32,000 nucleotides of DNA from Candidatus Electronema aureum. Its GTDB lineage: Bacteria > Desulfobacterota > Desulfobulbia > Desulfobulbales > Desulfobulbaceae. The translations under genes were made by a program, and so were the position numbers. Under the pieces are notes generated by a model. It saw only the letters and a program-made list of their open reading frames with translations, was not told where the DNA came from and did no database searches. The stretch covers positions 30,001 to 62,000 of the forward strand of contig NQJD01000004.1 of assembly GCA_004284765.1 (NCBI GenBank), given 5' to 3'. Within the stretch, counting starts at the first letter, position 1, and every line of letters starts with the position of its first letter. Positions 1,943-19,965 of the stretch are shown in pieces.

Positions 1943-3130
1943 TTATTTTACTGGCTTAACTAACTTATCGACATAGACAAACGTAGCTTCGTCGCCTGTT
2001 TTCTCTATCTTGGTCAAATAAACCGCATCCATACCCCGGCGGTCGTCTGGGCCGAAAGAAACTGGAACACCGCCCGCATCGTAATGCGACAAAGATTCGA
2101 GCGAAGTTTTGATCGCCTCAGAAGTGACCTCGCCTTTAACATTCTTGACCGCCTGATGAAGAACGTTTGCTGCGATGTACGCCTCTAAGCTGATAAACTC
2201 ATATTTTTCCGCGCCCATATCCTCTTGATACTGCTTGACGATAGGCAGTGAAGCATCCCAAGGATCAGGAACAACTTGGCTGATATAGACGTTATCGCTT
2301 TCATTCAGCCGTTCTGCCAAGCCTCTTGAGCCAACAAAGGAAATGTTGAGCATCGGCACCTTGAAGCCCATCTTGTGCCACTGGTTGATGGCCAAAGCAC
2401 AAGACCTTGCCGTGCCAACTAAAATAACCGCCTCAGCCGCGTTACCCCTGATCTGTCGCACGCCGCCGCCCACAGAAACAGTGTTGCGTTTGTAGTGCGG
2501 CACGCTGTTCCAAAAAGTAGTCCAGTCCTCTGTCGCGGCATTGTCAGCAGGAATGGCTGGCACCTCTGGTACAATTTTGATGCCCCCCAATTTTTTTTCT
2601 GCTGCCACCGCGCCTTTGATACCGGTTAAACCGAAATCGTCGCGCTGGACAAAAATACTGACCCGCTTGATGCCCAAATCCTCTTTCAGGTGCCGCATCA
2701 TGTTTTCAATCTCGGCTCCGTAGCTGGCTCGTAGGGCAAAAGAGGAGGGATTTGCCACCGGATCGCTGAGAAACTCAGCACCAGTACTTGCACCAAAGAA
2801 AAGGGTCTTGCTCTCGTTCGCCAAAGGAACGGCAACTTTGGAAGTTGGGGTACCAAGATAACCGAACAACACCTGCGCACCGTCTTTGATGAACTCTTCA
2901 GTATTAGCCAGACAACGATCAGGCTCGTAGCCGTCGTCCTTGCTGGTCAGCACGATATCTTCAGCGGCCCGTTTATCAAAATAGGCTTTAGCACCTTTCT
3001 GGATTTCAGCACCGAGAAAAGCGGTCGGGCCGGTCAAAGCGGAAGACTGCCCCACTTTGACCGCCGCAACACCATGATCCGGCAAAAGCAGGCAGCAGGT
3101 TGAGAAAAGAATCCACAGCTTGAGTCTCAT
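1943..3130 (-). CDS. Orphan periplasmic substrate-binding protein, LivK / type-1 PBP (Peripla_BP_6-like)
   Basis: The family-typical N-terminus VKVGQSSALTGPTAFLGAEIQKGAKAYFDK and the overall length fit branched-chain amino acid/amide-type binding proteins. The ORF-track start at 3160 is a GTG. The ATG at 3130 has AAGGGA 6 nt upstream and gives the signal peptide MRLKLWILFSTCCLLLPDHGVAA. No ABC permease or ATPase gene is adjacent. Confidence 0.8.
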   Translation of the reverse strand: MRLKLWILFSTCCLLLPDHGVAAVKVGQSSALTGPTAFLGAEIQKGAKAYFDKRAAEDIVLTSKDDGYEPDRCLANTEEFIKDGAQVLFGYLGTPTSKVAVPLANESKTLFFGASTGAEFLSDPVANPSSFALRASYGAEIENMMRHLKEDLGIKRVSIFVQRDDFGLTGIKGAVAAEKKLGGIKIVPEVPAIPADNAATEDWTTFWNSVPHYKRNTVSVGGGVRQIRGNAAEAVILVGTARSCALAINQWHKMGFKVPMLNISFVGSRGLAERLNESDNVYISQVVPDPWDASLPIVKQYQEDMGAEKYEFISLEAYIAANVLHQAVKNVKGEVTSEAIKTSLESLSHYDAGGVPVSFGPDDRRGMDAVYLTKIEKTGDEATFVYVDKLVKPVK

Positions 3131-3166
3131 GTTTGTTCCCTTGTCAGTTGATCTTGTCACGGCTGA

Positions 3167-6100
3167 TTAGCGGCTTTCTTTTTCGAGCTTGAAGACGGCA
3201 ACGGCTTGGAGCATGTCGTCGCCCATTGCGGCCATCTCGCGCATGGAGATGGAAGCACCCATCGTCTCCTGAGCAGTTTCCAAGCTGACGCGCCCAATGT
3301 CAGTCATCTTGCTCGCCAGCGCGGCGGTGGTGTCAGCCTGCTCCTTAGAGGCTGAGGCCACGCCCTCAATCAGCTCCGCCACTTCGTTCGAGCGGGTGGT
3401 GATTTCCTCCAGCTTGGCCAGCGCGTTCTGCGACAGCTTAGTACCCTGAACAACTTCTTGGATACTCGCATCCATACTCACGCCGGCCTCGGTGATCTCG
3501 CCGAGAATGTTACGGATCAGAGTTTCGATCTGGCGCGTGGAAACGGCGGCCCGTTCAGCCAGACGCTGGATTTCCTCGGCAACAACTGCAAAGCCGCGTC
3601 CTTCCTCGCCTGCTGCTGCCGCTTGAATCGAGGCGTTCAAGGCCAAAATCGAGGTACGGTCAGAAATTTCGTTAATGGTACGGGCGAAATCGCTGATTTC
3701 CTGCGAGCTTTCACCCAGCCGCTTAATCGCGCGGGCGGTATTCTGGACGTTGCTACGGATAGCTTCCATAGAATGGCTGGTTTCACGTACCGCTGTCGCA
3801 CCGTCTTCAGCAACCTGGCTGGAAATCTTAGAAGTACCTGCTGATTGCCCGGCTTTTTCCGCAGCACCCCGGATTTCTGCGGTCAGCAAGCTAATCTTCT
3901 GTACTGCCTCGTTGAGCAGTTGCGATTGCGTGTTGTTCTGATCGGCCAGCTCTCCGGTCGAGGAGCTGAGGACGTTAGCGGTAGAGCCAACCTGTTCAGC
4001 AGAGTCCTTGATTCGGCGGAAAGCGCGGCCCAGCTCGTCGAGCATCATGTTGAGCGAGTCGGCCAAGGTACCGATAACGTCATCAGTAACGGTGGCTCGG
4101 ATGGTCAAGTCACCATCGGCTAACTGGGTGATTTCCTCCAGCAGTTGAATGATCGAGTTGTTCAGCTTGTCATGCTCTTCCTGCCGGGTCTGGATCAGGT
4201 TCTGGATCGTACCAGTCATGGTGTTGAAGTCACCAGCCAGACGACCCAGCTCATCCTTACTGGTTACTTTCGCCTGCATGCTGTAATCACCTTTTTCAAC
4301 CTTGCTCATGACCTGCACAATTTCCTTAACCTGCCGAGTCACGCCACCAGCAACCAGCAAACTGACCACCGCAATCAACGCTGCGGCTGAGAGAACAGTC
4401 ACGCCGATGATCTTCAGCAAGTTAGTTACTGGCTGATGCACGGCATCTTCACTCACCTCACTGATAATCGCCCATGTTAGGTCTTTATATTTAAACTGCG
4501 CCCAAGAGGACAACACGCTTTCGCCCGCACCGTTGACGATAATCTTGGTATTGTCTTTGCCAGACAACGCTTCTGTCACTGCCTCAGTTGCCACTTTGGC
4601 CTTCGGATTCAGCAGCGTTTTTTCTACACCGTATTTTTTGGCATTTGAGGATTCAGAACGCCAAAGATGATCTGAGCCGATCAGATAGGTGTCGGCAATT
4701 GCCGTCTCCGCACCGGTCTGATGCTTGGATCCCTCTTCAAAGCGGCTGCGAATGTCCATAACCGCGTTGATTTGGTCAATCGGTATCTGCAAGGCAGCGA
4801 ACATGATGATTTCTTGCTTGTTGCTCAGAATCGGCGCAACTAAGAAAGCAGCGGGTTTGTCGCCTGCGGGTGCATAAAAGTCATAGTCGCTGATGGCAAT
4901 TTCTTTACTCGTGACCGCTTTGGCGACTGTTCCACCGAAGTTGGTGTCCTTATACGGGCCACTCAGCATGTTGGTCAAAAAATCTGCCTGTTTTTTGGCA
5001 GAGTAAAAAATGTAGCCGTCCGGGTTAATCAGGTAGAGGTCAGGAAAGCCGTAATGGGCGGCCAGCTCGCTTAAATGGTCGGTTTCTTTATCCGCAACCT
5101 TCCGCTTGGGGGCTACGGCATCAGCCTGATCCAGATCAACGATCAGTACCCACGTGGTACCGTAGATTTCCACCGAGGTGTAGGAAGAAAGCACGTAGTC
5201 ACCGCGATAGTTGTTGGTTGTCTCCTCGCCGCTCTCGCCGGACAGGGCATAAACCACGCTCTCAGTATCGACGACGAAGGCTGGGTTGGCCAAGGTCGGC
5301 TCGGCAAAATAAGCAGAGTTGGAACGGAACATGCCGTCCACACCAACGAGGTACGATTCGCCTTTGTCGCCAAGTCCTGGAGGATTCTTGGTGATATCAT
5401 CCAAGGCATTGCCTTTTAGCCCGAACAAGAGTACGCCTTCCAACTTGCCCTCAATAGTAAAGGGGGTAGAAAAATAGGCCACCATCTTATCGGTATGTTC
5501 TGCATGAAAAGAAGAAGGAGAGTAATCAATAAAGGCAGTTTCTTGTATTCCTTTCTGCAAGGCATTCCATTCTGCGGTTTTCTCTTTAACCACCTCGCCT
5601 CGCGTCATATCCTTATCAGTGGAATACAGCACTTTACCATCAGGACTGAGTAGAACGAGGGCGGAAAAGTCTCGTTGTTCGAGCCAATTCGTCAGATACT
5701 CAGCAAAAGCACTATCCATCTCTGTCGAGGCATCTTTAATGAAGCCCGTGAACATCTTCTTCTGCTCAGGGTTATTCGCAAAAGCCTGTGTGTTCTGATA
5801 GCGCATCTGAAAGTAGTCGATGATTTGCTTTTTCTGCAAATCCCTGACTGCTGCTAATTTGATGTGCGCCTCATTCTGGAGAAGCTGCATAGTCTCTGAA
5901 ATATTTTTCAGAGTCTTTTCCTGCTCCGTGAAATACTGATGCAGGGCCTGATGCTGGAACGCCAAGGTGGTTTCCAAGTTTTCAAAGGACTGCTGCTGCA
6001 AGGCCGAGGCCGAATAGCGCCAGCTGAACAGCGCGATCACCGCCATCGGCACCAAAGAAATCAGGAGGAGCCAAAATAGCAGCTTGCCCTTGATACTCCG

Positions 6101-6187
6101 CCCTAACGTGAACAGGCCCTTCAGGTTAGCGGCCTTCAGGCGGCTAAGTATCTGCTCCGCCGCTTTTCTTTTCAACACGTTCGCCAT
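3167..6187 (-). CDS. Methyl-accepting chemotaxis protein with large tandem Cache-like periplasmic region, HAMP and MCP signalling domains
   Basis: GAGGAG lies 4-5 nt before ATG 6187. TM1 is [21 protein letters not shown] and TM2 is [28 protein letters not shown] segment: [21 protein letters not shown]. Signalling hairpin: [41 protein letters not shown]. Confidence 0.9.
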
Positions 6188-6226
6188 TTTTTCTCCTCTA
6201 TAACAAGAAAATTACCTGAAACACCC

Positions 6227-6751
6227 TTAAACCGCAGGCTCCGGCCATGCCGCAGGCGGGCAGAGCGTAGGCAGCAGATTTGGCACCATCATCATCCCGT
6301 CTTCGTGGGCAAATAATCCTTTGAATAGGGCAGGATCAAGCCCGCTTGCCTCTATCGCTGCGGCAGCACACTGTTTAGGCAACTCGCGGGCAGCAATCCG
6401 ATCGGAAACCTTGAGAATACAGCGTAACATCCGCCGAGAGCTGTTTTCCTTTTCGTCCTCAGCTGGAACAACAAGCCGTATCACCATATATAAACTGCGA
6501 TCAGCGGAGAAACTCATGCCATGTAGTTTGGCAATATCCACCACCGGCAGCACCTGCCGCCGCCAAGCGCACAGCCCCAGCAGCCAATCGGGTGCAAAAG
6601 GCAGGGGGCGTACCTCTACATCTTGGAGTATTTCCTCCACCTGCCGTGTGGCGAAGAGCAGCACTGGCTCTTGATCCAACACCTTTGCTCCGGTCAATCG
6701 CACAGCGACCGTTTTTAGGGCCGCTCGTTTTATTCCTTGTTCATCCGGCAT
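6227..6751 (-). CDS. Divergent CheW-like coupling protein
   Basis: CheW-like core: LLFATRQVEEILQDVEVRPLPFAPDWLLGLCAWRRQVLPVVDIAKLHG. The ORF track starts at 6802. The internal ATG at 6751 (MPDEQG...) overlaps the upstream stop by only 11 nt (ATGCCGGATGA) and is the more economical start. Confidence 0.7.
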   Translation of the reverse strand: MPDEQGIKRAALKTVAVRLTGAKVLDQEPVLLFATRQVEEILQDVEVRPLPFAPDWLLGLCAWRRQVLPVVDIAKLHGMSFSADRSLYMVIRLVVPAEDEKENSSRRMLRCILKVSDRIAARELPKQCAAAAIEASGLDPALFKGLFAHEDGMMMVPNLLPTLCPPAAWPEPAV

Positions 6752-7847
6752 GTTGTTCACCCGGCATTCTGCGGCCTGCGCTTTCTTGGCAACGCAAGAC
6801 AATCTGATCGATGAGATACTGAATGATGTTTTCGCTCAGACCCTTTTGCCGCACCATCTTGGCCAAATCGGGGGGCAGCTGCTCCATACTGAGATGCGGC
6901 TCCTCGCCTCCGGTCTTGCTTTGCTTGAAGCAAGCGATGGTCCACGTCATCACTTTTTTAAAAGTTTCTTCGTCAATAGAAGCGGCGGTTTCTTTTTTCT
7001 CTTGTTCCGAGATAGATTCTGATGATTCTTCTGTAGAGGTATCTTGTATATCATCGGCAACCGGCTCATCAAGCTCTTCTGATTCGAGTTCTGTTTCAGT
7101 AAATATTGATTCTTCGCTTTCAGGTAAATCAGAAGAATCATCAGAAGGGCAGACACAGAAATTTTCATCTACATTTTGATCAAGCAGGGCGGCGGATTCT
7201 TCAGCGTTTCCAGGTGAATTGCCGAAAGACTCCTCGTCCATCTCTTCTTTGGAAGATGCTTCTGTAGGCGCAACACCCTGTGGCTGTTCTATATCAATTA
7301 CAGATTCAACCAATTCTTCTTCAACCAGTTCCGTTTCAGCAAATATTGATACTTCGCTTTCAGGCAAATCAGAAGGGCAGTCAAAGAGGTCCGCCTCGCT
7401 ATTCTGTTCCGCGATGAGCGTTTCCTCCGCAGCAGCCAGCCTTCCGATACCATTGCCCAGCTCATCGGCAACCGGGATGATTTGAGCCGGATTGAGCAGC
7501 AGTACCGCCGAATCACCCCAAATTGTCACTTGTGGGCAAAGCCGAGCCGCCAAGCGCGGGCAAACAGGCGGCAGCGGGCCGGGCGGATTAATGACTTCCA
7601 CCTCGTCAGCGATAAGCTGGTCGGCTACGAGAAAAAAGGATTCGTCCTTTCCCCGCATCTCCAAACAGATCGCATCCGACTGCGGCTCTCCACCCGGTTG
7701 CTGGGCGAACAGCGCACTGAGCTGCACGATTTTGCTGTCTTGTTTGAGCAGCGAGGCTGCCTCGGCCCACGACATCCGGCCAATGATGTCGTGTTCAGCG
7801 ATACCCAGTAGAAAGCGGCCCGCTTGTGCTATACAGATTTTCTTCAT
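6741..7847 (-). CDS. CheW-like domain protein with acidic internal repeats and an unknown C-terminal helical domain
   Basis: The N-terminal ~130 aa have a CheW-like pattern (FLLGIAEHDIIGRM..., FFLVADQLIADEVEV). The central ~170 aa are extremely acidic, with the duplicated block DLPESE(V/E)SIF(A/T)ETEL. The C-terminal ~80 aa (KKVMTWTIACFKQ...LSENIIQYLIDQIVLRCQES) are not recognised. Confidence 0.65.
   Translation of the reverse strand: MKKICIAQAGRFLLGIAEHDIIGRMSWAEAASLLKQDSKIVQLSALFAQQPGGEPQSDAICLEMRGKDESFFLVADQLIADEVEVINPPGPLPPVCPRLAARLCPQVTIWGDSAVLLLNPAQIIPVADELGNGIGRLAAAEETLIAEQNSEADLFDCPSDLPESEVSIFAETELVEEELVESVIDIEQPQGVAPTEASSKEEMDEESFGNSPGNAEESAALLDQNVDENFCVCPSDDSSDLPESEESIFTETELESEELDEPVADDIQDTSTEESSESISEQEKKETAASIDEETFKKVMTWTIACFKQSKTGGEEPHLSMEQLPPDLAKMVRQKGLSENIIQYLIDQIVLRCQESAGRRMPGEQHAG
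7087..7389 (-). repeat. In-frame direct repeat inside the acidic CheW-like gene (two ~60-70-nt copies offset by 240 nt)
   Basis: AGTTCTGTTTCAGTAAATATTGATTCTTCGCTTTCAGGTAAATCAGAAG (from 7087) matches AGTTCCGTTTCAGCAAATATTGATACTTCGCTTTCAGGCAAATCAGAAG (from 7327). The first copy carries a 12-nt insertion. Confidence 0.8.
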
Positions 7848-7869
7848 AATTTCGAGCTACGCCGTCGCT

Positions 7870-10800
7870 TCATTCGTTCATCTCCACCGCAATACGCCCG
7901 GAGATCATACTGCGAATGAGTTCAACAGCCTCATCTTCTTTGAAGGGTTTCGTCATGAAACCGCGTGCACCGAGCTGGGATGCTTTTTCACGGTATTTGT
8001 CCGCGCTGCGAGAAGTAAGCATGACCACTGGAATATCTTGGAATTCTGGCTGACTTTGCAAGGCTTGTAGCACTTCAAAACCATTCATACGTGGCATTTC
8101 CACATCCAGCAGCACGAGGTCAGGTTTTTCTTCGCGGATACGCTCCAAGGCTTCAATACCGTTGCGAGCAATAGTCGGCTGCCAGCCATGCTGAAGGAGG
8201 AAGTTAGACACGACCTTACGCACGCTGATTGAGTCATCGACCACCAGCACTTGGATTGGCCTTTCCTCGGTTTGCGGTTGTACTTCTGTAACAAACTCTG
8301 TTTCAGCCGACGGCGCAGTCAATTGTGCCCATTTTTTCAATAAATCATCGATCTGAAGAATGGGAATCAAACTACCGTCACCCATAATGGTCACGCCCGC
8401 GATGCAGGCTACGTTGCTCAGATGACTGCCCAAATCTTTGAAAACGATATCGCGCTGGCCGATGATTTGTTCGCAGAGCAAAGCAGCCCGCCTGCTGCCA
8501 ACGTGGACGGCAAGTACAGCCAGCTCGCTTTCCGGCAGGGCCTCGCCTGAAACACCAACCTGAAAGCCGGGGATAGCCGCTGGATTGAGCAACGGCAACT
8601 TTTTGCCGTCAACCTCGCATTCGTTAGCAACTATGTCTTCGGGTCGCACTCTGGCTGCGCTACTGATGTCGTGCATCGGCACGGCGTAGGTTTGGCCAGC
8701 CAAGCGCACAAGTACCGCATGAAGCTGGGCCACAGCTACGGGTAGCCGGATGAGCAGCTCCAGCCCCTTACCTCTGGGCGAGAAAATTTCAATTGAACCG
8801 TTGAGCAGCTCGACCGAATCGCGCACTACGTCCATGCCCACGCCGCGACCCGCAATGCTGCTGATCGACCCGGCGCTGGAGAAGCCATGCCGAAAAATCA
8901 GCGTGGCTAACTTCTCATCGCTCATACTATCGATGCGCTCGTGAGGATAAAGCGTCATACCTTTAATGCGGATAGCTTCGTAATTCAAGCCCTTACCGTC
9001 GTCCTTGATCCGCAGAGAAAACTGACCGCCCCGTCGTTCGGCTTTAATCCGCACGGTCAGCTGTCGCTCCGAGCTACCACCGTGAGCTACTGAGTTGCGG
9101 AGGATGTGCATGAGCGCGTCGGCCATCGTGTCCCAGACGCGAGTGTCCATCATGATCGACTCGCCGTCAATAATCAGCTGGGCTGGATGGCCGGTGCTGC
9201 GTTCGGCCTCGCGCAGAGTGCGTTGCATCCGGGCGGAGAGCACAGAAAGCGGTGTCATCCGCAAGCCGATCATTTTATTCTGAATGTCCTTCAGAACCCG
9301 CGCCTGCCGCTCGACCGTTCTTTCCCAAGCGATGTTTTCCAACGCGCTCTGGGCCATGATTGAATCAAGGTCGCTGACCGCCTCGCTCAGAGAGCGAATA
9401 AGGATGTTCAGCTCAGAATAGCGATCCATCTCCAGCGGATCGAAGTCCTCAGTGAGGCTACCACTGTCGGTATCACTCATGCCGCGCAGATAGGGGATAG
9501 TTGCCAGCTCGTAGCCTGTTTCTAAGCTATGGTTGATGCTTTTCAGCCGTTGGAGAATCATACCCAGCTCATTGAGGGTACCAGACATGGCTGACATGGA
9601 TGCCTCAAAGCTGCTCAGGTTGATGACCATGTCGCCACTCAGACCAACCACTTGGTCAATCCGGCTGATATCGACGCGCAGCGTGTTGATTCTGCGCACT
9701 CCGGTATGTTGTTCTTGAACTGGAGGCGGTGGCGGTGGTGGCGCGGCAGGAGTAGGCTCTGTTACTGAAGCAATAGGTTCTGCTGAAACAGCAGGCAACG
9801 GCGCAGGTGCGGGTTCTTCGGCATCGATAACGGTAACAGGCTCGGCAGCAGCAACCTGCGGCTGTGTTTTTTCGCTTGCGATGATTTTACGAAATCGCTC
9901 TACTACCGCTTCCTTTTTTTCAGTCACCGGCACCGCAGGATTTTCAGTGATACGCACCAGCAGATCGGCACCTTCCTGCATGGCCGCTACATCTTCTGAG
10001 TGCAAAACCGGCGATTCATCATGGAGCCAGTCAAGGAAGTCCTCAAACTCATGTCCCCACGCCGCCACCGGTTCAATGCCGATTACCGCTGCCGCGCCTT
10101 TCAGCGTATGCACCGAACGGCGGAGTGAATGCAAATTCTCCCGCAGCGGCTCTGAGAGCGCGGTCTCATCGTCCACGCCAGCGGCCAGCTCTTTCAGCTG
10201 TTGGTCGATGTTTTCTAAATGCTCCGCTGCTTCCTCGTTGAAGCATTGCATCAACTCAGGATCAATGGCCTGAATTGTATCCTCAGCTACAGGTTCCGTC
10301 ACCGAAGCTGAGGCAAACAGGCTATCATTATTGTCTTCAGCAGCGGGAAAAAACTCCTCATCACCTGCGGATACGTCATCGAGCTGCGGCTCAACGGCAA
10401 AAAGTTGCTCCTCAGCCGAATCAGCGGTGGGGAACAGTTCAAATTGCTCCGTTGCCCCAGTTTCGCACGGTTCTTCTTCCGCAAAAAAAACATCCACCGT
10501 TGCTGCGGAAGGCAGGTCAGCCGTTTCCGGCTGCGCAGCAAAGGCGGACGCAACTACAGGCGTGGCCATGATTTCCCGGAACCGAGTCACAGCGACTTGC
10601 TTATCTTGCTCCAGCGAAATGGTTGGTTGGTCGGCTATCCTCGCCAAAATATCCGCGCCTTCCTGCATGGCGGCCACGTCTGATGGGTGCAGCACCGGCG
10701 ATTCATCATGGAGCCAGTCAAGGAAGTCCTCGAATTCATGCCCCCAAGCGGCTACAGGCTTGATGCCAATCACCGCCGCCGCGCCTTTCAAAGTATGCAC

Positions 10801-12567
10801 GGAGCGGCGGAGTGAATGGAGATTTTCCCGCAGCGGTTCAGACAGCCGAGTTTCGCCGTCCACCCCAGCGGCCAGTTCCTTTAGCTGCTGGTCGATGTTC
10901 TCTAAATGCTCTGCCGTCTCTTCGCTGAAGCATTCCAGTAGCTCAGGATCAATGGCCTCATCTTCCTCTTCAGCCGACTCAGGAGCGGCGGCAAACAAGT
11001 CTTTGGCATCAGGCAGCTCATCAAAGAGCGAAGCCTCAGTCTCGTCGTTTGGCTCTTCAGCAAAAAAGTCGGCTTCACGTTCTTCAGCAGCACATACGTC
11101 CGCGACCGGCAGTTGCTCAGTCTGCGCCGCCATAATTTCCCGAAAGCGGAGGGCAGGAGACTGAACTTCCTGCTTTTCTGTTGTGGCTGGTGAAAAAACA
11201 ACGGAAATTGCATCTCCGTCGAAATTGGGAAAAAGACCTGTGCGGTTGCTTTCTTCAGAAGTGGAATCCGGCGGCGAGAACAACTCGTCAAACAGGTTTG
11301 TAGCTGAACTGTTGGCTTGTTCTTCAGCAAAAAGCTCGTCAGCAGGAAGGGAAATTTTCGGTTCTGCGCTGTCAGCGGGCGGAGCTGCCGCCTCTTCTTC
11401 AACAGTTTGAAACAAACCGCTGTCTTCCGCAGAAGCATCATCGGAGAACAACTCGTCAAAGAGGACTGCTGACGAGCTGACGTCCGTTTTTTCGGCAAAA
11501 AAATCTTCAACCTCAGAGGCAAAAGCCTGATCAACGGTTTCAGGCGGCGCAGCCTCCGGCTCAACTTCCGCCGCTGGCTCAAGTTCAGTCCCGCTTTCCT
11601 CCCTGATGACGCGGAATTGCTCTGCTGCTGCCCGCTGTTCCTCTGCAAAAACGCAGGTTGCGTCTTCAGCTAAAACTGCCAGCACGTCACGCCCGTCATG
11701 AACAGCGGCCAAGGCCTGCGGGTGCAAGACAGGAGCTTCATCATGCAGCCAATCGAGGAAATCCTCAAACTCGCGGCCCCACGCTGCCACTGGCTCAATG
11801 CCAATCACTGCCGCCGCGCCTTTCAAGGTATGCACAGAGCGACGTAACGAATGAAGACTCGCGCGCAGATCGTCGGAGAGCGGGGTTTTGTCGATAACAG
11901 AGGCAGTCAGCTGCTTGAGTTGCTGATCAATGTTATCCAGATGCTCGGTTGCCTCCTCGTTGAAGCAGGCCATCAGCTCAGGATCAATGGCGTATGCTAC
12001 TGGAACAGACGTTGTTCCCTCATGCTCTTCGAGATTTTCGTTAAGCAGGAAAACCTCTTCCACTTCCCCCTCGTTGACAGAGAGTAGTTGCTCAAGAATC
12101 CCGGCGATGGAATCTTCATCAGCACCGACTGGCGGCTCTTTTTCAGCAGGCGCATCGTCGCGTTCCGGCGGAAGATCACGGTGTTTTGCCTGAAAAGCGG
12201 CCAACGTTTCCTGATGCAACAGGGTACTACCGCCCTGTTTTTCCACGCTCCGTAAGGTGCAGAAAGCATCAATCCGCTGTATCGTATCGCTGAAAAGTGA
12301 AATCAGCTCATCGTCCATAATCAGCGCAGATTCAAGCACCTTGTCCATGACCTGTTCCAGCAGTCCACCGGTCTGGCTCAAATCATCAAAACCCACCATC
12401 GCGGCGGCACCCTTGATGGTATGAACCATACGATGTAGCTCGGCAGCGGCCTCGCTGTTGTCCCGGTCTTTTCTCAGTGTTTGCAGACAGCCGCGCATTA
12501 GGGGCAAATACCCTTCCACCTCGCTCAGGAATTCAGCTGCGATTTCATTGGCCGACGTATCGTCCAT
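7870..12567 (-). CDS. ChpA-like hybrid CheA histidine kinase: 4 x Hpt, dimerisation, HATPase, CheW-like and C-terminal receiver domains
   Basis: AAGGA lies 8 nt before ATG 12567. Hpt1 is LHRMVHTIKGAAAMVG. Three further Hpt domains carry LHSLRRSVHTLKGAAAVIGI. N-box HILRNSVAHGG, G1 IKDDGKGL, G2 GRGVGMDVV. The CheW-like P5 region is followed by a receiver (VLVVDDSISVRK...LLDVEMPRMNGF...TKPF). Confidence 0.95.
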   Translation of the reverse strand: MDDTSANEIAAEFLSEVEGYLPLMRGCLQTLRKDRDNSEAAAELHRMVHTIKGAAAMVGFDDLSQTGGLLEQVMDKVLESALIMDDELISLFSDTIQRIDAFCTLRSVEKQGGSTLLHQETLAAFQAKHRDLPPERDDAPAEKEPPVGADEDSIAGILEQLLSVNEGEVEEVFLLNENLEEHEGTTSVPVAYAIDPELMACFNEEATEHLDNIDQQLKQLTASVIDKTPLSDDLRASLHSLRRSVHTLKGAAAVIGIEPVAAWGREFEDFLDWLHDEAPVLHPQALAAVHDGRDVLAVLAEDATCVFAEEQRAAAEQFRVIREESGTELEPAAEVEPEAAPPETVDQAFASEVEDFFAEKTDVSSSAVLFDELFSDDASAEDSGLFQTVEEEAAAPPADSAEPKISLPADELFAEEQANSSATNLFDELFSPPDSTSEESNRTGLFPNFDGDAISVVFSPATTEKQEVQSPALRFREIMAAQTEQLPVADVCAAEEREADFFAEEPNDETEASLFDELPDAKDLFAAAPESAEEEDEAIDPELLECFSEETAEHLENIDQQLKELAAGVDGETRLSEPLRENLHSLRRSVHTLKGAAAVIGIKPVAAWGHEFEDFLDWLHDESPVLHPSDVAAMQEGADILARIADQPTISLEQDKQVAVTRFREIMATPVVASAFAAQPETADLPSAATVDVFFAEEEPCETGATEQFELFPTADSAEEQLFAVEPQLDDVSAGDEEFFPAAEDNNDSLFASASVTEPVAEDTIQAIDPELMQCFNEEAAEHLENIDQQLKELAAGVDDETALSEPLRENLHSLRRSVHTLKGAAAVIGIEPVAAWGHEFEDFLDWLHDESPVLHSEDVAAMQEGADLLVRITENPAVPVTEKKEAVVERFRKIIASEKTQPQVAAAEPVTVIDAEEPAPAPLPAVSAEPIASVTEPTPAAPPPPPPPVQEQHTGVRRINTLRVDISRIDQVVGLSGDMVINLSSFEASMSAMSGTLNELGMILQRLKSINHSLETGYELATIPYLRGMSDTDSGSLTEDFDPLEMDRYSELNILIRSLSEAVSDLDSIMAQSALENIAWERTVERQARVLKDIQNKMIGLRMTPLSVLSARMQRTLREAERSTGHPAQLIIDGESIMMDTRVWDTMADALMHILRNSVAHGGSSERQLTVRIKAERRGGQFSLRIKDDGKGLNYEAIRIKGMTLYPHERIDSMSDEKLATLIFRHGFSSAGSISSIAGRGVGMDVVRDSVELLNGSIEIFSPRGKGLELLIRLPVAVAQLHAVLVRLAGQTYAVPMHDISSAARVRPEDIVANECEVDGKKLPLLNPAAIPGFQVGVSGEALPESELAVLAVHVGSRRAALLCEQIIGQRDIVFKDLGSHLSNVACIAGVTIMGDGSLIPILQIDDLLKKWAQLTAPSAETEFVTEVQPQTEERPIQVLVVDDSISVRKVVSNFLLQHGWQPTIARNGIEALERIREEKPDLVLLDVEMPRMNGFEVLQALQSQPEFQDIPVVMLTSRSADKYREKASQLGARGFMTKPFKEDEAVELIRSMISGRIAVEMNE
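9966..10270 (-). repeat. Hpt module copy C (4th Hpt) of a three-copy in-frame tandem paralogue set
   Basis: It aligns by eye with 10653-10957 at a constant offset of 687 nt (229 codons). It encodes AIDPELMQCFNEEAAEHLENIDQQLKELAAGV...HTLKGAAAVIGIEPVAAWGHEFEDFLDWLHDESPVLH. Confidence 0.85.
10653..10957 (-). repeat. Hpt module copy B (3rd Hpt)
   Basis: Same unit as copy C. The protein sequence is almost identical to copy C across the Hpt core, while many third codon positions differ. Confidence 0.85.
11688..11992 (-). repeat. Hpt module copy A (2nd Hpt)
   Basis: Offset 1035 nt (345 codons) from copy B. It encodes AIDPELMACFNEEATEHLDNIDQQLKQL...HTLKGAAAVIGIEPVAAWGREFEDFLDWLHDEAPVLH. It is more diverged at nucleotide level than B is from C. 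Confidence 0.8.
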
Positions 12568-12599
12568 CTGCTTGTTCCTTCATGGGTTGAGGGCTGGCT

Positions 12600-13184
12600 T
12601 CATTGCAGCCTGATCGAAGAGAGCAGCTTGCTGCCGTCAAAAAGCTCCAGCTCGTGTTCGCCGTTTTCTGCTAAAAACAAAGCCGAGCCGCTGATAAAAT
12701 CAACTGGAACCGCTGCCGCGTCGAGGTGTTTCATCCCCTCTTTACGGTAAAGCAGACGAGTGCCGGTAATTTTATCGACTATGGCTGCTGTCTTCATGCC
12801 TTTTTCATGCAGAATGATGACCGTCCTGCCTTTTTTGGGAATTTTCTCGGTAATTTTGAACAAAACCGCAAGATTGGTGACAGAGACAATCTCACCCCGG
12901 AGATTCGTCACGCCTTCAGACCAACTTGGTAAAAAAGGCAAAGGCCGCACTGTTTCTAATTCACCGACCTCAATTACTAAAGACAGAGGCACAGCGAGAT
13001 GCTGCCCGGCCAGCGTGAAGCAAATGTGCCGACCGATTTCAGTCAGCGTTTGCGCTGAACCGGAATCATCTGTTAGCTGCTGCTCGCGGCGCAGTTCCTC
13101 AGCGATCTCCTGATCAATGCCAGACAGTAGCGCGGTTAAGACCACATCCGCGCTGCTGGTCTCTTGTTGGGCGGTCATGCCCAC
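12600..13184 (-). CDS. cheW: CheW coupling protein (PilI-like position)
   Basis: CheW pattern: HICFTLAGQHLAVPLSLVIEVGELETVRPLPFLPSWSEGVTNLRGEIVSVTNLAVLF. The start is either GTG 13184 or ATG 13178, 8-14 nt after the upstream stop. Confidence 0.85.
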   Translation of the reverse strand: MGMTAQQETSSADVVLTALLSGIDQEIAEELRREQQLTDDSGSAQTLTEIGRHICFTLAGQHLAVPLSLVIEVGELETVRPLPFLPSWSEGVTNLRGEIVSVTNLAVLFKITEKIPKKGRTVIILHEKGMKTAAIVDKITGTRLLYRKEGMKHLDAAAVPVDFISGSALFLAENGEHELELFDGSKLLSSIRLQ

Positions 13185-13192
13185 GGTCCGGC

Positions 13193-13558
13193 TCAGGCGA
13201 GTAGGCCGGTGACTGCTTTCAGCAGTTCAGCCGGGTCAAAAGGCTTGGTCAAATAAACCTCTGCACCCTGCTTCTTGCCCCAGAACTCATCGGATTTCTG
13301 ATTTTTACTGGTGAGCAGGATGATCGGGATGTTCTGAAGATCGGGCGTAGATTTGATCGTCCGGCACGCCTGAAAGCCGTTCATTTTTGGCATGACCACG
13401 TCTAAAATGATCAAATCAGGCTTTTCAGCAGCCGCCTTAGCCACGCCTTCTTCACCATCTATTGCGGTCACAACCGCATATTCTGGGCCGCTGAACACAT
13501 CAATGATCAGCTTCAATTCAGTGGGGCTGTCATCAACTATCAGCAATTTTTTAGCCAT
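13193..13558 (-). CDS. Single-domain response regulator, PilH/PixH-type CheY
   Basis: AGGA lies 6 nt before ATG 13558. Receiver motifs are LLIVDDSPTE and LIILDVVMPKMNGF. The tail LLTSKNQKSDEFWGKKQGAEVYLTKPF matches the SK-Q-x-D-x-FWG-x-KQGA-x-Y-x-TKPF signature I associate with PilH/PixH. Confidence 0.9.
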   Translation of the reverse strand: MAKKLLIVDDSPTELKLIIDVFSGPEYAVVTAIDGEEGVAKAAAEKPDLIILDVVMPKMNGFQACRTIKSTPDLQNIPIILLTSKNQKSDEFWGKKQGAEVYLTKPFDPAELLKAVTGLLA

Positions 13559-13621
13559 GTTCGTTCCTTTCTTTTCAACGTTAGAGGTTCAAAGTTTCAC
13601 GCACGAGATTTTTTCAACTTC

Positions 13622-15466
13622 TCAACTGACCGACGTTTCCGTTGATTTTGCCCCTTCAGGCGCATTTTTATCAAGGATACTGTTGACCACATTGATCAGC
13701 TCCGCTGGTTTGAAGGGTTTGGTCAGATAAGCACTGGCAGCGGAAAGATGGCCCTTCACCTTGTCGAGTATCCGATTTTTACTGGTCAGCATGACCACAG
13801 GAATATCCTTGGTCTCACCATTTTTCTTGAGAATCGACAGGAGTTTGTAGCCATCAATCTTGGGCAGCATGATGTCCAACAGTACCATGTCAGGCCGATC
13901 ATCGTTGAGCTTGCTCAGAGCCTCTACCCCGTCTACCGCCTCAATCACCCGGAAACCGCCGCTCTGAAGGGTCATCTTGATTACCTTGCGAGTGGTAGGG
14001 CTGTCTTCCACGACTAATACCGTTTTTTTATCGGTCTGATTGTCAATTACCTGTCTTTCTTTCTTGAACTGCTGCGCCGACGAAGTCGGCGTACTCCGTT
14101 CCTCTATTTTCTGGTTAGAGGCGATATAATCGACAATCTGTCCTACCTGCTCTGATACCTTTTGATAGCGGCTATCTACCTGAATGATCGGCATCAGCAG
14201 ATCAAAATAGGTCAGAGCCTTATCAAAATCGTTCAAATTGAGATACGCCGCGCCGGCATAGAAAAGAATCTTTGGATTCACTTCAGCAGCTAACACTTTT
14301 TCAAAACGTCCGGCAGCTTGGAGAATTAACCTCCGATCAACTGCATAAGGATCAATCTTGGCTAATGCCGAGGACTCAGTCAGCAAACTGGCCTTACAGC
14401 AAATGCAGGCCGGAGCTTGGTGTTCCAGCGGTGCGTAGCAAAAGGGACAGCGGATGATCTTGGCTTCGGCAGCTGCGCTGTTGAGTAGGCGAGCTTTCTC
14501 GACATCCTCTAAAATATCGGCATGTTCTGGTTCAAGCCGGTAGGCTTCTGCCAGCGCAGTCTTAATTTTTTTTGGCTCAGTCACCGCCCGCGACAGCCAA
14601 AGCCAGCCCAAAGCATTCTTGCGGTTTTCTTTAACAAAAGCCATCAGTGGCTTCTGCGCTTGGACGAATTCTAACCGCTCGCAGAGTCGGATACCCTCGT
14701 CGAGCAGTTTTTGCTGCTGTGGTTCCTCGCCGCCATCCTCTTCCTCACCGCACTGATGATCCTTCTGAATCATGGCATTGATGAGCAGGTTTTGATTGCT
14801 TTTATGCACCCGCCGGATGATATTTTTATCTAAAAGGCAACTGCTAACCTGCACGCCCTCCATACTTAAAAGTTTGAGCGCAGCTTCCTCGCCAACCAGC
14901 TTGCCGCAGATTGCATCGTAGATCGTACCTTGGACAAGGAACAGACTGCCCCGGAACTCCTTGCAGTTCTGCTCGATGCACTGATTCATGTCGTGGTGAT
15001 CGCTGCTTTTATGGACATCAAGGCGGCAGGTGGTGCCTTCTGTTTCCATCAGCTGGACAATACCCACCACCGAAAATTCGCCCAAATCGCTCTTTTTTTG
15101 CTGTGTTTTGAGGCCACGAAGAATCGCATCCGCCAGCTCCTGCGACATCACCGGCTTTTTGAACATCTGAAAAACCTTGCCAGACAGTCGTTCTTGGAGT
15201 TCAGGTAGCTCGTAGGAGGTGATAACGATGCAGGGAATCTCAGGATGTTTTTCGTAAATATGCGCGAGCAGCTGAAAGCCATCGCCACCAGGCATGACAA
15301 TGTCAGTAACGATTAAGGCAATGTCGTCATCACGTTCCAAGGCAGCCGCTGCATTTTTGATGTCAAAGGCATGAACGAGTTCAAAAATGCTGCTGTACTT
15401 ACTTAACGTGGAATTGATCAGCTCGTGAATGACATGATCATCATCGACCAACAGTACTTTCTTCAT
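13622..15466 (-). CDS. Dual-receiver regulator: REC - PATAN/DUF4388 - TPR-like/zinc-ribbon - PilG-like REC
   Basis: AAGGA abuts ATG 15472 and lies 6 nt before ATG 15466, so MKKVLLVDDD is the likely start. REC1: VLLVDDDHV...IVTDIVMPGGDGF. DUF4388-like: GEFSVVGIVQLMETEGTTCRLDV...GSLFLVQGTIYDAICGKLVGEEAALKLL. Zinc ribbon: CPFCYAPLEHQAPACICC. TPR-like: FYAGAAYLNLNDFDKALTYF. REC2: VLVVEDSPTT...LLDIMLPKIDGY...MLTSKNRILDKVKGHLSAASAYLTKPF. Confidence 0.85.
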   Translation of the reverse strand: MKKVLLVDDDHVIHELINSTLSKYSSIFELVHAFDIKNAAAALERDDDIALIVTDIVMPGGDGFQLLAHIYEKHPEIPCIVITSYELPELQERLSGKVFQMFKKPVMSQELADAILRGLKTQQKKSDLGEFSVVGIVQLMETEGTTCRLDVHKSSDHHDMNQCIEQNCKEFRGSLFLVQGTIYDAICGKLVGEEAALKLLSMEGVQVSSCLLDKNIIRRVHKSNQNLLINAMIQKDHQCGEEEDGGEEPQQQKLLDEGIRLCERLEFVQAQKPLMAFVKENRKNALGWLWLSRAVTEPKKIKTALAEAYRLEPEHADILEDVEKARLLNSAAAEAKIIRCPFCYAPLEHQAPACICCKASLLTESSALAKIDPYAVDRRLILQAAGRFEKVLAAEVNPKILFYAGAAYLNLNDFDKALTYFDLLMPIIQVDSRYQKVSEQVGQIVDYIASNQKIEERSTPTSSAQQFKKERQVIDNQTDKKTVLVVEDSPTTRKVIKMTLQSGGFRVIEAVDGVEALSKLNDDRPDMVLLDIMLPKIDGYKLLSILKKNGETKDIPVVMLTSKNRILDKVKGHLSAASAYLTKPFKPAELINVVNSILDKNAPEGAKSTETSVS

Positions 15467-15760
15467 GTGCATTCCTTACGCGTTGCCGCATCAGTCCGCA
15501 GATGCCGCTGTTCAAATCGGTTCAAAAAGTAAGCAAGAGAAAGTCCGCTCCGGAGGATTTTTTCAGTATATGCACAGGACAAAGGCAGGCGCATTTCCAA
15601 GCACAACAAGGAAATAGTTTGCGGGTAAAAAATTGCAGGGCAGACGCACATTTTTTCCTTCTGCTGCATAAAAGCGGAACCGGAATACAGGCCAGCGCAT
15701 TGTTTATGCAGAATAGCCCCGCTCTCCCCGTAGGAAGACCTCCGATCAGGAAATTTTTCC

Positions 15761-18690: not shown

Positions 18691-19965
18691 GTGGACGGCG
18701 TGCAATTTCCCCTGATCGGGAACAGCATTATCATGGCAACGGTCATCCTCATTCATGTCTTTTTCGCGTTTTTCGCGGTAGGAGGCTCAGTCCTGTCAGT
18801 GGTGGCAGAATGGTGGGGAACGAAAAAAAAGGATGAGGACTACATCAAGTTAGCAAAAAGCGTGTCTGGCTTCCTCTCCGACATGATGAAAATCAACGGC
18901 GTGCTGGGTGTGGCCATCGTAGTGCTGACCATCGGCCTCTGGAGCCAGTTTGGTGCGTTTCTTTACTCAATGCAGTTTTGGCCTTTCCTTGCTGAGGGCG
19001 CGGTTTTTCTACTGCTGATGATCTTTTCAGTCATTTATCATCATACGTGGAATTCCCTTTCGCGCGGAGGACACATTTTTATTGGTATCCTCACTGGCTT
19101 TTTCGCCCTGATGGCTGGTTTTCTGATCAACGGTATTTGGGCTTTCATGCTGGTGCCCGGTAAATGGATGGAAACCGGTGCCCGCTGGGATGCCTTCTTT
19201 AACCCCATTCTGGTGGAGTCAACCCTCCATATCTTGTTGCCCTGTTTGATCAATGCCACCCTGCTGGTTTTCCTCTGGACTTATTTAAAATCCACCAAAA
19301 CCCAAGGCGCAGAGCAGGCATATTTCAACAAGATGAACAAGTTTACAGCTAAAATCGGAGCTGCCCTGCTGTTCCTCCAGCCGCTTTCCGGTCTCAGCTT
19401 CCTTTTCAAGGTCAAGTCCGCCACCGAAACACTTCCTGCGCCCAATCCGTGGCAGCAGATAACTGACGGCATGGCCACGCCTTTCCTCTACACCATGATT
19501 ACGCTGGCCACGCTGGCAATGATCGGCGGCGTTCTGTACTGGGTGCAAGGACATGAAAAAGGCCGTAAAGCTCTGGCGGCTGCTTCGCTGGCCATGTTCC
19601 TCGCCTTCTTCATGGGTGGTTTTACTCGTGAGAGGGCAAGAAAACCGTACTTGGTCTGGGGAACGATGTACATGAACCAGAAGTTTGTTCCCGGCAACAT
19701 CGCCGCACCTCCCGTACCGGCTACCGTGGCAAACACTGCTGCGCCGGTGAGCGGCGAGCAGGTGATTAAAGACGTTGGCTGCATGAACTGCCATGCGGGC
19801 GGTGCGGGAGCACCCTCGCTGACTGGTTTGGCGCAAAGATACGACAAGGCCAAACTGATGGACTTCGTTCGTCAGCCAAAAGGTGCGGCAGCCAACATGA
19901 TGCCGCCCTTCCCCGGCTCAGAGCAGGAACTGGAAGCCCTTGCTGATCATCTGCTAACGAAGTAA
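18691..19965 (+). CDS. CydA-like (cytochrome bd subunit I family) membrane protein fused to a C-terminal monohaem cytochrome c domain
   Basis: GTG start with AGGAG 7 nt upstream. The protein aligns by eye to E. coli CydA landmarks. ILIHVFFAFFAVGG corresponds to the H19 region, KINGVLGVAIV...SQFG to FGINFALGV...FQFG, and FLAEGAVFLL to the E99/E107 region. ESTLHILLP corresponds to the H186 region and GGFTRERARKPYLVWG to GW..AE.GRQPW. The C-terminus has CMNCH (CxxCH) followed by MMPPF. Confidence 0.8.
   Translation: MDGVQFPLIGNSIIMATVILIHVFFAFFAVGGSVLSVVAEWWGTKKKDEDYIKLAKSVSGFLSDMMKINGVLGVAIVVLTIGLWSQFGAFLYSMQFWPFLAEGAVFLLLMIFSVIYHHTWNSLSRGGHIFIGILTGFFALMAGFLINGIWAFMLVPGKWMETGARWDAFFNPILVESTLHILLPCLINATLLVFLWTYLKSTKTQGAEQAYFNKMNKFTAKIGAALLFLQPLSGLSFLFKVKSATETLPAPNPWQQITDGMATPFLYTMITLATLAMIGGVLYWVQGHEKGRKALAAASLAMFLAFFMGGFTRERARKPYLVWGTMYMNQKFVPGNIAAPPVPATVANTAAPVSGEQVIKDVGCMNCHAGGAGAPSLTGLAQRYDKAKLMDFVRQPKGAAANMMPPFPGSEQELEALADHLLTK

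Follow-up and report, generated by a model that had tools for sequence, protein, structure and literature searches.

The chemosensory operon and its kinase

The DNA considered here, called the window throughout, is a stretch of 32,000 nucleotides from the cable bacterium Candidatus Electronema aureum (contig NQJD01000004.1, positions 30,001 to 62,000), and its reverse strand carries a chemosensory operon (1943-15472) that includes a ChpA-type CheA kinase. Our subject is the set of acidic linkers that separate the histidine phosphotransfer (Hpt) domains of this kinase, in which a short motif, consisting of a hydrophobic residue directly followed by phenylalanine, recurs far more often than composition predicts. 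The region singled out in the first-pass annotation (10270-11690) corresponds to ChpA residues ~293-766 and spans the end of Hpt2, linker 2, Hpt3 and linker 3.

The kinase begins with four Hpt domains, followed by the P3 dimerisation domain, the P4 HATPase domain, the P5 CheW-like domain and a C-terminal receiver (REC) domain at residues 1440-1551. The Hpt domains, delimited by hmmsearch at residues 1-119, 193-319, 538-664 and 767-893, all carry the phospho-histidine motif HT[IL]KGAAA (4/4), and the third is a member of a 300-nt repeat family with 74% identity to the fourth. The ChpA of Ca. Electronema halotolerans has five Hpt domains. The core is matched by the Pfam models H-kinase_dim, HATPase_c and CheW and is predicted with confidence by AlphaFold2 (AF2). 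A P2 (CheY-binding) domain has no Pfam match in the protein, and AF2 places no folded domain between the Hpt modules. The closest ChpA proteins, from "Desulfobulbus sp. F5" and a JGI entry, are 92-93% identical, and over one Hpt module the identity to Ca. Electronema nielsenii F5 is 97%. Orthologues in Ca. Electronema and Electrothrix are named ChpA or Hpt-domain protein, and at JGI "chemosensory pili system protein ChpA." By its domain architecture the kinase is assigned to the type IV pilus class of CheA proteins, the ChpA architecture (PMC10542144).

The remaining genes of the operon (Table 1) invite comparison with two known systems. Like Pil-Chp of Pseudomonas aeruginosa, with its kinase ChpA, and like the Tax1/Hmp systems, with PixL accompanied by PixG and PixH, the operon combines a kinase that has multiple N-terminal Hpt domains, a C-terminal REC domain and no P2 with a PATAN-type regulator, a CheY-like regulator, CheW proteins and a methyl-accepting chemotaxis protein (MCP). 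It encodes three free REC domains in addition to that of ChpA. In loci L001, L002 and L003 the first gene of the operon is an orthologue of the 616-residue REC-PATAN-TPR-REC regulator. No CheR or CheB was found by Pfam between 1943 and 15472, and both this lack and the gene order lie nearer to Tax/Hmp than to Pil-Chp. Given the presence of the PATAN regulator and the absence of CheR and CheB from the operon, its layout appears closest to the cyanobacterial Tax1/Hmp systems (PMC11181946).

Table 1. Members of the chemosensory operon and subdivisions of ChpA and ChpX, in window coordinates (aa, amino acids)
Feature	Coordinates	Strand	Basis	Remarks
Periplasmic binding protein	1943..3160	-		Chemosensory operon member
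MCP with HAMP domains, 1006 aa	3167..6187	-	Pfam
Second CheW-like protein, <=191 aa	6227..6802	-	Pfam	Start of open reading frame (ORF) overlaps ChpX 3' end
ChpX (name coined here), 368 aa	6741..7847	-		Without Pfam match
ChpX three-helix C domain, aa 291-368	6744..6977	-
ChpX disordered acidic middle, aa 136-290 (aa ~152-290 in the AF2 model)	6978..7442	-
ChpX divergent CheW-fold N domain, aa 1-135		-
ChpA-type CheA kinase, 1565 aa	7870..12567	-	Pfam, hmmsearch Hpt boundaries, orthologue names, AF2 domains
Linker 4, aa 894-955	9703..9888	-		Pro/Ala-rich; no Phe, no motif; internal negative control
Linker 3, aa 665-766	10270..10575	-		Polyacidic, net charge -25, no K/R; 5 motif units: VFFAEEE, FELFPT, QLFAVE, EFFPAAE, SLFASA
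Hpt3 module, aa 538-664	10576..10956	-	Pfam, hmmsearch	Phospho-His motif HTLKGAAAVIG
Linker 2, aa 320-537	10957..11610	-		Polyacidic, net charge -51; 12 hydrophobic-Phe dipeptides, ~10 motif units: DFFAEK, LFDELF (twice), LFQTV, ELFAEE, LFPNF, VVFSP, DFFAEE, LFDELP, DLFAAA
Putative relic helix SPALRFREIMAAQ in linker 2, aa 469-482	11122..11163	-	Sequence comparison, AF2
Linker 1, aa 120-192	11992..12210	-		Acidic; a single hydrophobic-Phe pair (EEVFLL); DSIAGILEQLL as a distinct conserved island
CheW, 194 aa	12600..13184	-	Pfam
CheY-like single-domain response regulator, 121 aa	13193..13558	-	Pfam
REC-PATAN(DUF4388/PatA_N)-TPR-REC response regulator, 616 aa	13622..15472	-	Pfam

A directional motif in the inter-Hpt linkers

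The statistics of the motif were obtained on linkers 2 and 3 taken together (residues 325-537 plus 668-765, 311 residues), a set that contains 82 Asp or Glu, eight Lys or Arg, 26 Phe and a single Trp, Tyr or Met residue in all. Segments centred on the motif include residues 364-378 (AVLFDELFSDDASAE), 495-508 (EREADFFAEEPNDE) and 688-702 (AATVDVFFAEEEPCE). The dipeptide LF occurs 12 times where 1.57 occurrences are expected, and the wider class [LIVF]F 18 times against 5.5; neither count was reached in any of 20000 composition-matched shuffles. The flanked form [DE]x0-2[LIVF]Fx0-2[DE] occurs 12 times against 2.5 expected, a count reached by one shuffle in 20000. When shuffling was confined to blocks of 25 residues, the comparison for [LIVF]F became 18 against 5.7 and that for LF 12 against 1.9, with none of 20000 shuffles reaching either. 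Phenylalanines that are simply flanked, before and after, by an acidic residue no more than three positions away are not enriched (12 against 11.4). Since that count lies at expectation, acidity is best regarded as the background and the motif as the hydrophobic residue directly before Phe.

These results bear on most of what the first-pass annotation had said of the linkers. The ten ChpA peptides that it quoted, together with both peptides from the 368-residue neighbour, are all present in the translations, and its picture of linkers that are strongly acidic and have no obvious fold agrees with their composition and with the disorder predicted by AF2. The recurrent motif itself stands, and it survives both the global and the block shuffles, but as an enrichment of hydrophobic-Phe pairs; the accompanying description as Phe in an acidic context does not distinguish the linkers from their own composition.

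At the level of DNA, Tandem Repeats Finder (TRF) detected no tandem repeat in the linkers, which rules out recent slippage as the cause of the recurrence. Self-matches within the linker DNA are limited to stretches of 18-20 nt at 70-89% identity and a single 66-nt pair that aligns the opening stretches of linkers 2 and 3 at 71%; this pair is attributable to an old duplication of an Hpt-plus-linker module. Three long shadow ORFs cross the linker region (9881-10273 and 10331-11164 on the forward strand, 10902-11648 in another frame of the reverse strand). They are by-products of low-complexity coding sequence, not genes; homologues support the frame of ChpA. In four further acidic segments, taken from nearby ORFs of cable bacteria, hydrophobic-Phe pairs are entirely lacking. 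Taken as a sequence pattern, the ~17 short motifs of each chain form a directional, multivalent and apparently selected array in a disordered tether.

Conservation among cable bacteria

The consensus derived from 234 motif instances in 19 cable-bacterial orthologues reads [DE]-[DS]-[L>F>I>V]-F-[A/D]-[E/D]-[L/I]. Its flanks show preferences beyond composition, with Asp at positions -2 and -1 favoured 3.2-3.4-fold, Glu depleted at -1 and Leu or Ile favoured 2.2-2.6-fold at +3. The motif is also strongly oriented: LF outnumbers FL by 103 to 15 in 13 cable-bacterial species, an asymmetry with a binomial p of ~2.5e-17 over instances that are not phylogenetically independent, and by 44 to 30 in non-cable relatives. 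Hydrophobic pairs that lack Phe do not cluster, standing at 1.06 times expectation in cable and non-cable linkers alike, and this ratio rules out a general clustering of hydrophobic pairs. In the loci of the 13 species the units are typically 10-19 residues apart (median 16), with a coefficient of variation of 0.03-0.32; the spacing is significantly regular in six species and not in the other seven.

Among 120 ChpA homologues, the enrichment is present in nearly all full-length proteins of Electronema and Electrothrix (40-60% identity) and fades outside them. The same boundary emerged when 75 loci of GTDB species representatives were surveyed. Every full-length Electronema or Electrothrix ChpA in it carries 29-50 hydrophobic-Phe dipeptides per 1000 linker residues, a count reached by 0 to 5 of 500 shuffles, and no enrichment was found in Desulfocapsa, Desulfogranum, Desulfonema, Desulfopila, Desulfosediminicola or many Desulfobacterales, even where the kinase has four to five Hpt domains. 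Two partial exceptions lie outside the cable bacteria: a fragmentary protein of Ca. Desulfobulbus rimicarensis and, in a small uncultured group (P0029-31, L021), linker 1. The array thus defined is specific to cable bacteria and, among their nearest uncultured relatives, to a few. When only linker 2 was used to search for homologues, no matches came back and even an orthologue of 88% identity was missed, presumably through low-complexity correction.

The enrichment is replicated in more than 25 orthologues, which share descent, so that the per-species tests are not independent of one another. Between Electronema proteins of 58-60% overall identity, linker Phe residues are 69-77% identical and other linker residues 32-38%, a contrast inflated by the BLOSUM-based alignment, which favours Phe-Phe matches. 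The linkers of Electrothrix differ from those of Electronema throughout, yet the enrichment persists in them. The motifs are therefore kept in orthologous linkers while the remaining sequence diverges. Of the two outcomes that the first-pass annotation had named as refuting, neither occurred: the enrichment did not vanish against composition-matched shuffles, and the motifs proved conserved in orthologous linkers. Density is kept at ~3 units per linker of 65-110 residues, and placement shifts between the two genera: Electronema carries its motifs mostly in linker 2, Electrothrix also in linker 1.

Disorder of the tethers

The AF2 model covers ChpA residues 366-1565 and was built from a 71-sequence alignment. 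The Hpt, P3-P5 and REC domains are confidently predicted, and the predicted local distance difference test (pLDDT) score falls to 27-41 in the linkers generally, with ranges of 27-50 for linker 2 and 33-44 for linker 3. On this model the tethers between the Hpt domains are predicted to be intrinsically disordered polyanions. The only helix that AF2 predicts in linker 2 (fragment residues 106-117) is SPALRFREIMAAQ, which matches the element that closes every Hpt module (EQFRVIRE, TRFREIMA, ERFRKIIA). Read as a relic of such an Hpt-closing helix, it indicates that linker 2 probably arose by fusion of two linkers once an Hpt core had been lost.

Linker 1 contains an island of its own, DSIAGILEQLLS...EEVFLLNENLEE, at ChpA residues 152-181 (window ~12025-12112, reverse strand), which is near-invariant across the orthologues of Electronema (DSIAGILDQLL) and has the look of another short motif, different from the hydrophobic-Phe one.

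The neighbouring protein ChpX

The first-pass annotation took the 368-residue product of the neighbouring gene to be CheW-like and to share the motif of the kinase. The first point is borne out by structure prediction. The N domain is modelled at pLDDT 83-94, and its top 18 Foldseek matches in the PDB are all CheW or CheA-P5, with probabilities of 0.97-1.00 and TM scores of 0.5-0.67 when normalised to free-standing CheW chains. Sequence comparison is weak or null: the window protein has no Pfam match, PF01584 (CheW) gives weak matches in five of 28 orthologues (best E 1.9e-4), alignment of the ChpX family against a single CheW by hhalign is not significant and a profile search of PDB sequences returned nothing. 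The genuine CheW fold of ChpX is hence established through AF2 and Foldseek. ChpX belongs to a small family, for which 63 clusters were counted among 1.84 billion representatives. The C domain, always attached to the divergent CheW-like domain, is conserved as IDEETFKKVM.WT...FKQ...QLPP.L...IQYLIDQIVLRCQE and is unmatched in Pfam, NCBIfam and the PDB as well as by fold.

The second point is upheld only in part. The acidic middle of the window protein contains ADLFD and two copies of SIF[AT]ETEL. Taken alone it gives a weak signal (three hydrophobic-Phe pairs against 1.0 expected, p~0.05), and the two SIF[AT]ETEL copies, which are two of the three instances, sit in one 70-nt internal duplication of 81% identity. 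When the middles of nine Electronema species are pooled, hydrophobic-Phe pairs number 26 against 9.5 expected (0/2000 shuffles), in elements such as EDDPFFPE, EEFFAE and SIF[ST]ETE. Across genera, compared in the window and loci L008, L016, L018 and L022-L024, the middle is hypervariable: long and acidic in Electronema, where that of species PJ reaches 378 residues with 122 Asp or Glu and is made of repeated blocks, and short and neutral to basic in Electrothrix (in YB6, for example, six Asp or Glu and 19 Lys or Arg). In some more distant relatives it is acidic without motifs. AF2 shows no helix or rise in confidence at the motifs of the middle and no docking of the middle onto the ChpX domains. 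Since a motif-bearing middle is limited to Electronema, it is not evidence for a common partner conserved across cable bacteria; and since ChpX also occurs where the motif is missing from the ChpA linkers, as in Desulfocapsa and several Desulfobacterales, its presence is not a specific marker of the partner either.

The ORF of the second CheW-like protein opens with a TTG at 6802 and has its first 62 nt in common with the 3' end of ChpX (6741-6802, reverse strand). Its true start probably lies further downstream, because only residues 48-108 match the CheW model.

Apart from the operon, the window contains an ORF of 424 residues (18691-19965, forward strand) with a partial cytochrome bd oxidase subunit I (Pfam Cyt_bd_oxida_I, residues 14-234, about the first half of the model) and a C-terminal cbb3-type cytochrome c domain (residues 353-421), to all appearance an unusual truncated fusion of bd-I and cytochrome c.

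A docking array in place of P2?

We tentatively favour the proposal that the array offers multivalent docking for the receiver domains encoded in the operon, in place of P2. Each hydrophobic-Phe motif would be a weak docking site, and the acidic spacer would keep the hydrophobic pair exposed to solvent, as has been proposed for acidic activation domains. Together the motifs would act as a multivalent "fly-paper" that raises the local concentration of its partner beside the Hpt phospho-histidines on the chemosensory array, and would thus stand in for the missing CheY-binding domain. The candidate partners are the receiver domains of the 121-residue CheY-like protein and of the 616-residue PatA-type REC-PATAN-TPR-REC protein, and in Electronema the array-resident ChpX may have acquired a similar tether that adds valency. 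We rank the receiver proteins first because they are obligate Hpt substrates, because P2 is missing and because the motif class resembles CheY-binding peptides. In the homologous Tax1 system PixL phosphorylates both the PATAN-REC protein and the CheY-like protein (PMC11181946). P2, which follows P1 and has a flexible linker on either side, is dispensable; most CheA proteins lack it, and its loss slows phosphotransfer (PMC10542144). The task envisaged for the array would be that of P2, to raise the concentration of the regulator beside the Hpt phosphodonor, except that P2 is a folded domain and the array consists of short motifs in disordered sequence only.

Recruitment by a motif on a tether is already known in chemotaxis, in the NWETF pentapeptide, the FliM and CheZ peptides and P2. 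The CheY-binding peptides at the N-terminus of FliM and the C-terminus of CheZ are short, acidic and amphipathic, and their hydrophobic pair has a third hydrophobic residue ~3-4 positions beyond it. The ChpA motif may be likened to them in its acidic hydrophobic pair and in the preference for Leu or Ile at +3; it differs in that those peptides are single and terminal, whereas ChpA has ~17 internal copies with no helix predicted at them. Cable bacteria, besides, are described as lacking flagella. The NWETF-type pentapeptide is a single-copy, Trp-containing C-terminal tether of chemoreceptors that binds CheR and CheB. It shares with the ChpA array a short aromatic and acidic motif on a flexible tether at the chemosensory array, but the ChpA motifs are internal and lie on the kinase, the linkers have no Trp and the operon has no CheR or CheB, so that the features of the class are absent.

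Look-alikes exist among eukaryotic short linear motifs (SLiMs). DFFAEE, VFFAEEE and EEFFPAAE recall FFAT (EFFDAxE in an acidic tract), though most instances in ChpA are of the LF type; the consensus core [DE][DS][LV]F resembles DDVF, an RSK-binding motif given as D/E-D/E-V-F in PMC11984722; and acidic activation domains share the logic of an acidic spacer that exposes aromatic residues. The partners of these motifs (the MSP domain of VAP, RSK, Mediator/CBP) are eukaryotic, and the resemblance implies neither homology nor a shared partner. As for the kinases themselves, the first-pass annotation knew of no such motif in ChpA-type proteins, and we likewise found none reported for inter-Hpt linkers in a survey of CheA architectures, a review of Pil-Chp, the Tax1 paper or full-text literature searches; in this the cable-bacterial kinase differs from ChpA and PixL as those proteins are described.

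Several results weigh against docking of receiver domains. AF2 predicts no helix and no rise in pLDDT at any motif of ChpA 366-1565, and thus gives no hint that the motifs fold conditionally or dock in cis on the Hpt, P4, P5 or REC domains of the kinase. A survey of net charge found no operon protein or domain that is notably basic, and hence no obvious electrostatic partner. The shared descent of the orthologues, the inflated Phe contrast and the shift of motif placement between genera, all described above, count on the same side. Moreover, in the operon CheY, compared over 47 loci, the cable-specific substitutions lie within positions 2-51, in the core and helix alpha-1, and the alpha4-beta5-alpha5 face, which binds FliM and CheZ peptides, shows no cable-specific change and is equally conserved in motif-less relatives. 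Helix alpha-1 of CheY is the usual surface for Hpt and kinase specificity. The clustering of the substitutions there suggests that the operon CheY co-evolved with the expanded set of Hpt domains; the cluster in the window protein (13193-13558, reverse strand) comprises E14, D20, V21, P25 and E26.

Alternatives to receiver docking

A partner other than a receiver domain is somewhat doubtful in itself and yet nearly as likely as a receiver partner. The motifs would then dock to a hydrophobic groove at the array, in CheW, the N or C domain of ChpX, P5 or the MCP tip, or else to the TPR or PATAN domain of the 616-residue regulator, a type IV pilus motor protein of the PilB, PilT, PilM or PilZ type, or a cable-specific protein encoded elsewhere. 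The motif statistics serve this proposal as well as they serve receiver docking, and the unchanged peptide-binding face of CheY serves it better. The motif is confined to cable bacteria while REC proteins, CheW and ChpX range more widely, and this narrower range points to a clade-specific partner or need. TPR modules commonly bind short acidic peptides. Against particular candidates stand the presence of ChpX in Desulfocapsa and several Desulfobacterales without the motif, and the lack of any docking in cis onto P5 or the ChpX domains in AF2.

It is less likely that the motifs have no specific partner, the Phe pairs either tuning the compaction and reach of the linkers or being decaying relics of micro-duplications, in units of ~16 residues, from the cable-bacterial ancestor. 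Duplication has left traces: the linkers are partly homologous through the Hpt-plus-linker duplication, the ChpX copies are an obvious internal duplication and the PJ middle is made of repeated blocks. That AF2 sees no conditional structure and that motif positions are not fixed between genera would also be expected of such a history. Yet no tandem repeat is detectable in the DNA, within Electronema linker Phe is kept about twice as often as the other residues of the linkers, and the enrichment persists in Electrothrix despite linkers that differ throughout. Orientation and flank preferences, moreover, are kept over 234 instances, and Phe-less hydrophobic pairs show no clustering. A role without a partner, or neutral decay, fits poorly with the retention of Phe, its orientation and its flanks.

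We consider it quite unlikely that the Phe pairs are stickers of a sticker-and-spacer system, which would drive condensate-like clustering of ChpA, and in Electronema of ChpX, at the array or cell pole. The valency is high (~17 units per chain, two chains per dimer) and the median spacing of 16 residues is regular in six of the 13 species, although the other seven show no significant regularity. Condensates that organise kinase signalling have precedents in bacteria, namely PopZ and the kinase condensates of PMC8849385 and PMC9512792. The net charge (-51 in linker 2, -25 in linker 3 and ~-154 over residues 1-955) would oppose homotypic association unless a polycation or basic partner took part; the middle of Electrothrix ChpX, neutral to basic as in YB6, might in principle associate with the acidic linkers of ChpA. 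The near-neutral or balanced charge of phase-separating disordered regions is not found in linkers 2 and 3, the latter having no Lys or Arg at all, and the strict LF orientation with Asp at -1 and -2 is more typical of stereospecific docking than of generic aromatic stickers.

Chance, or an artefact of a low-complexity acidic composition, accounts for the acidic flank alone and is otherwise effectively refuted by the shuffle and orientation tests, since no global or block shuffle reached the LF or hydrophobic-Phe counts, the pattern recurs in more than 25 orthologues and, even allowing for instances that are not phylogenetically independent, LF prevails over FL at p ~2.5e-17.

Implications for cable bacteria and multi-Hpt kinases

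As a feature of the sequence the array is well supported. Regardless of its partner, it offers a clear bacterial example of a disordered region that keeps the type, density and spacing of its motifs while alignment is lost. Kinases of the ChpA type with multiple Hpt domains are poorly understood, and reviews still ask why there are so many of these domains and how regulators find them without P2 (PMC10542144, PMC11181946). A conserved, clade-specific array would provide a mutable handle on the recruitment of partners to a pilus-type chemosensory array.

To our knowledge, cable bacteria have not been obtained in pure culture and are not genetically tractable. Hypotheses that derive from sequence and can be tested in vitro are especially useful for them on that account. 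It is possible, though we hold it with considerable doubt, that cable bacteria evolved a new recruitment device, in which an array of ~17 SLiMs in the ChpA tethers, joined in Electronema by ChpX, replaced P2 and concentrates regulators or a cable-specific motility partner. If so, it would rank as the first array of SLiMs known from a kinase of the CheA family, and it could set the phosphorelay kinetics that coordinate gliding reversals along the multicellular filament.

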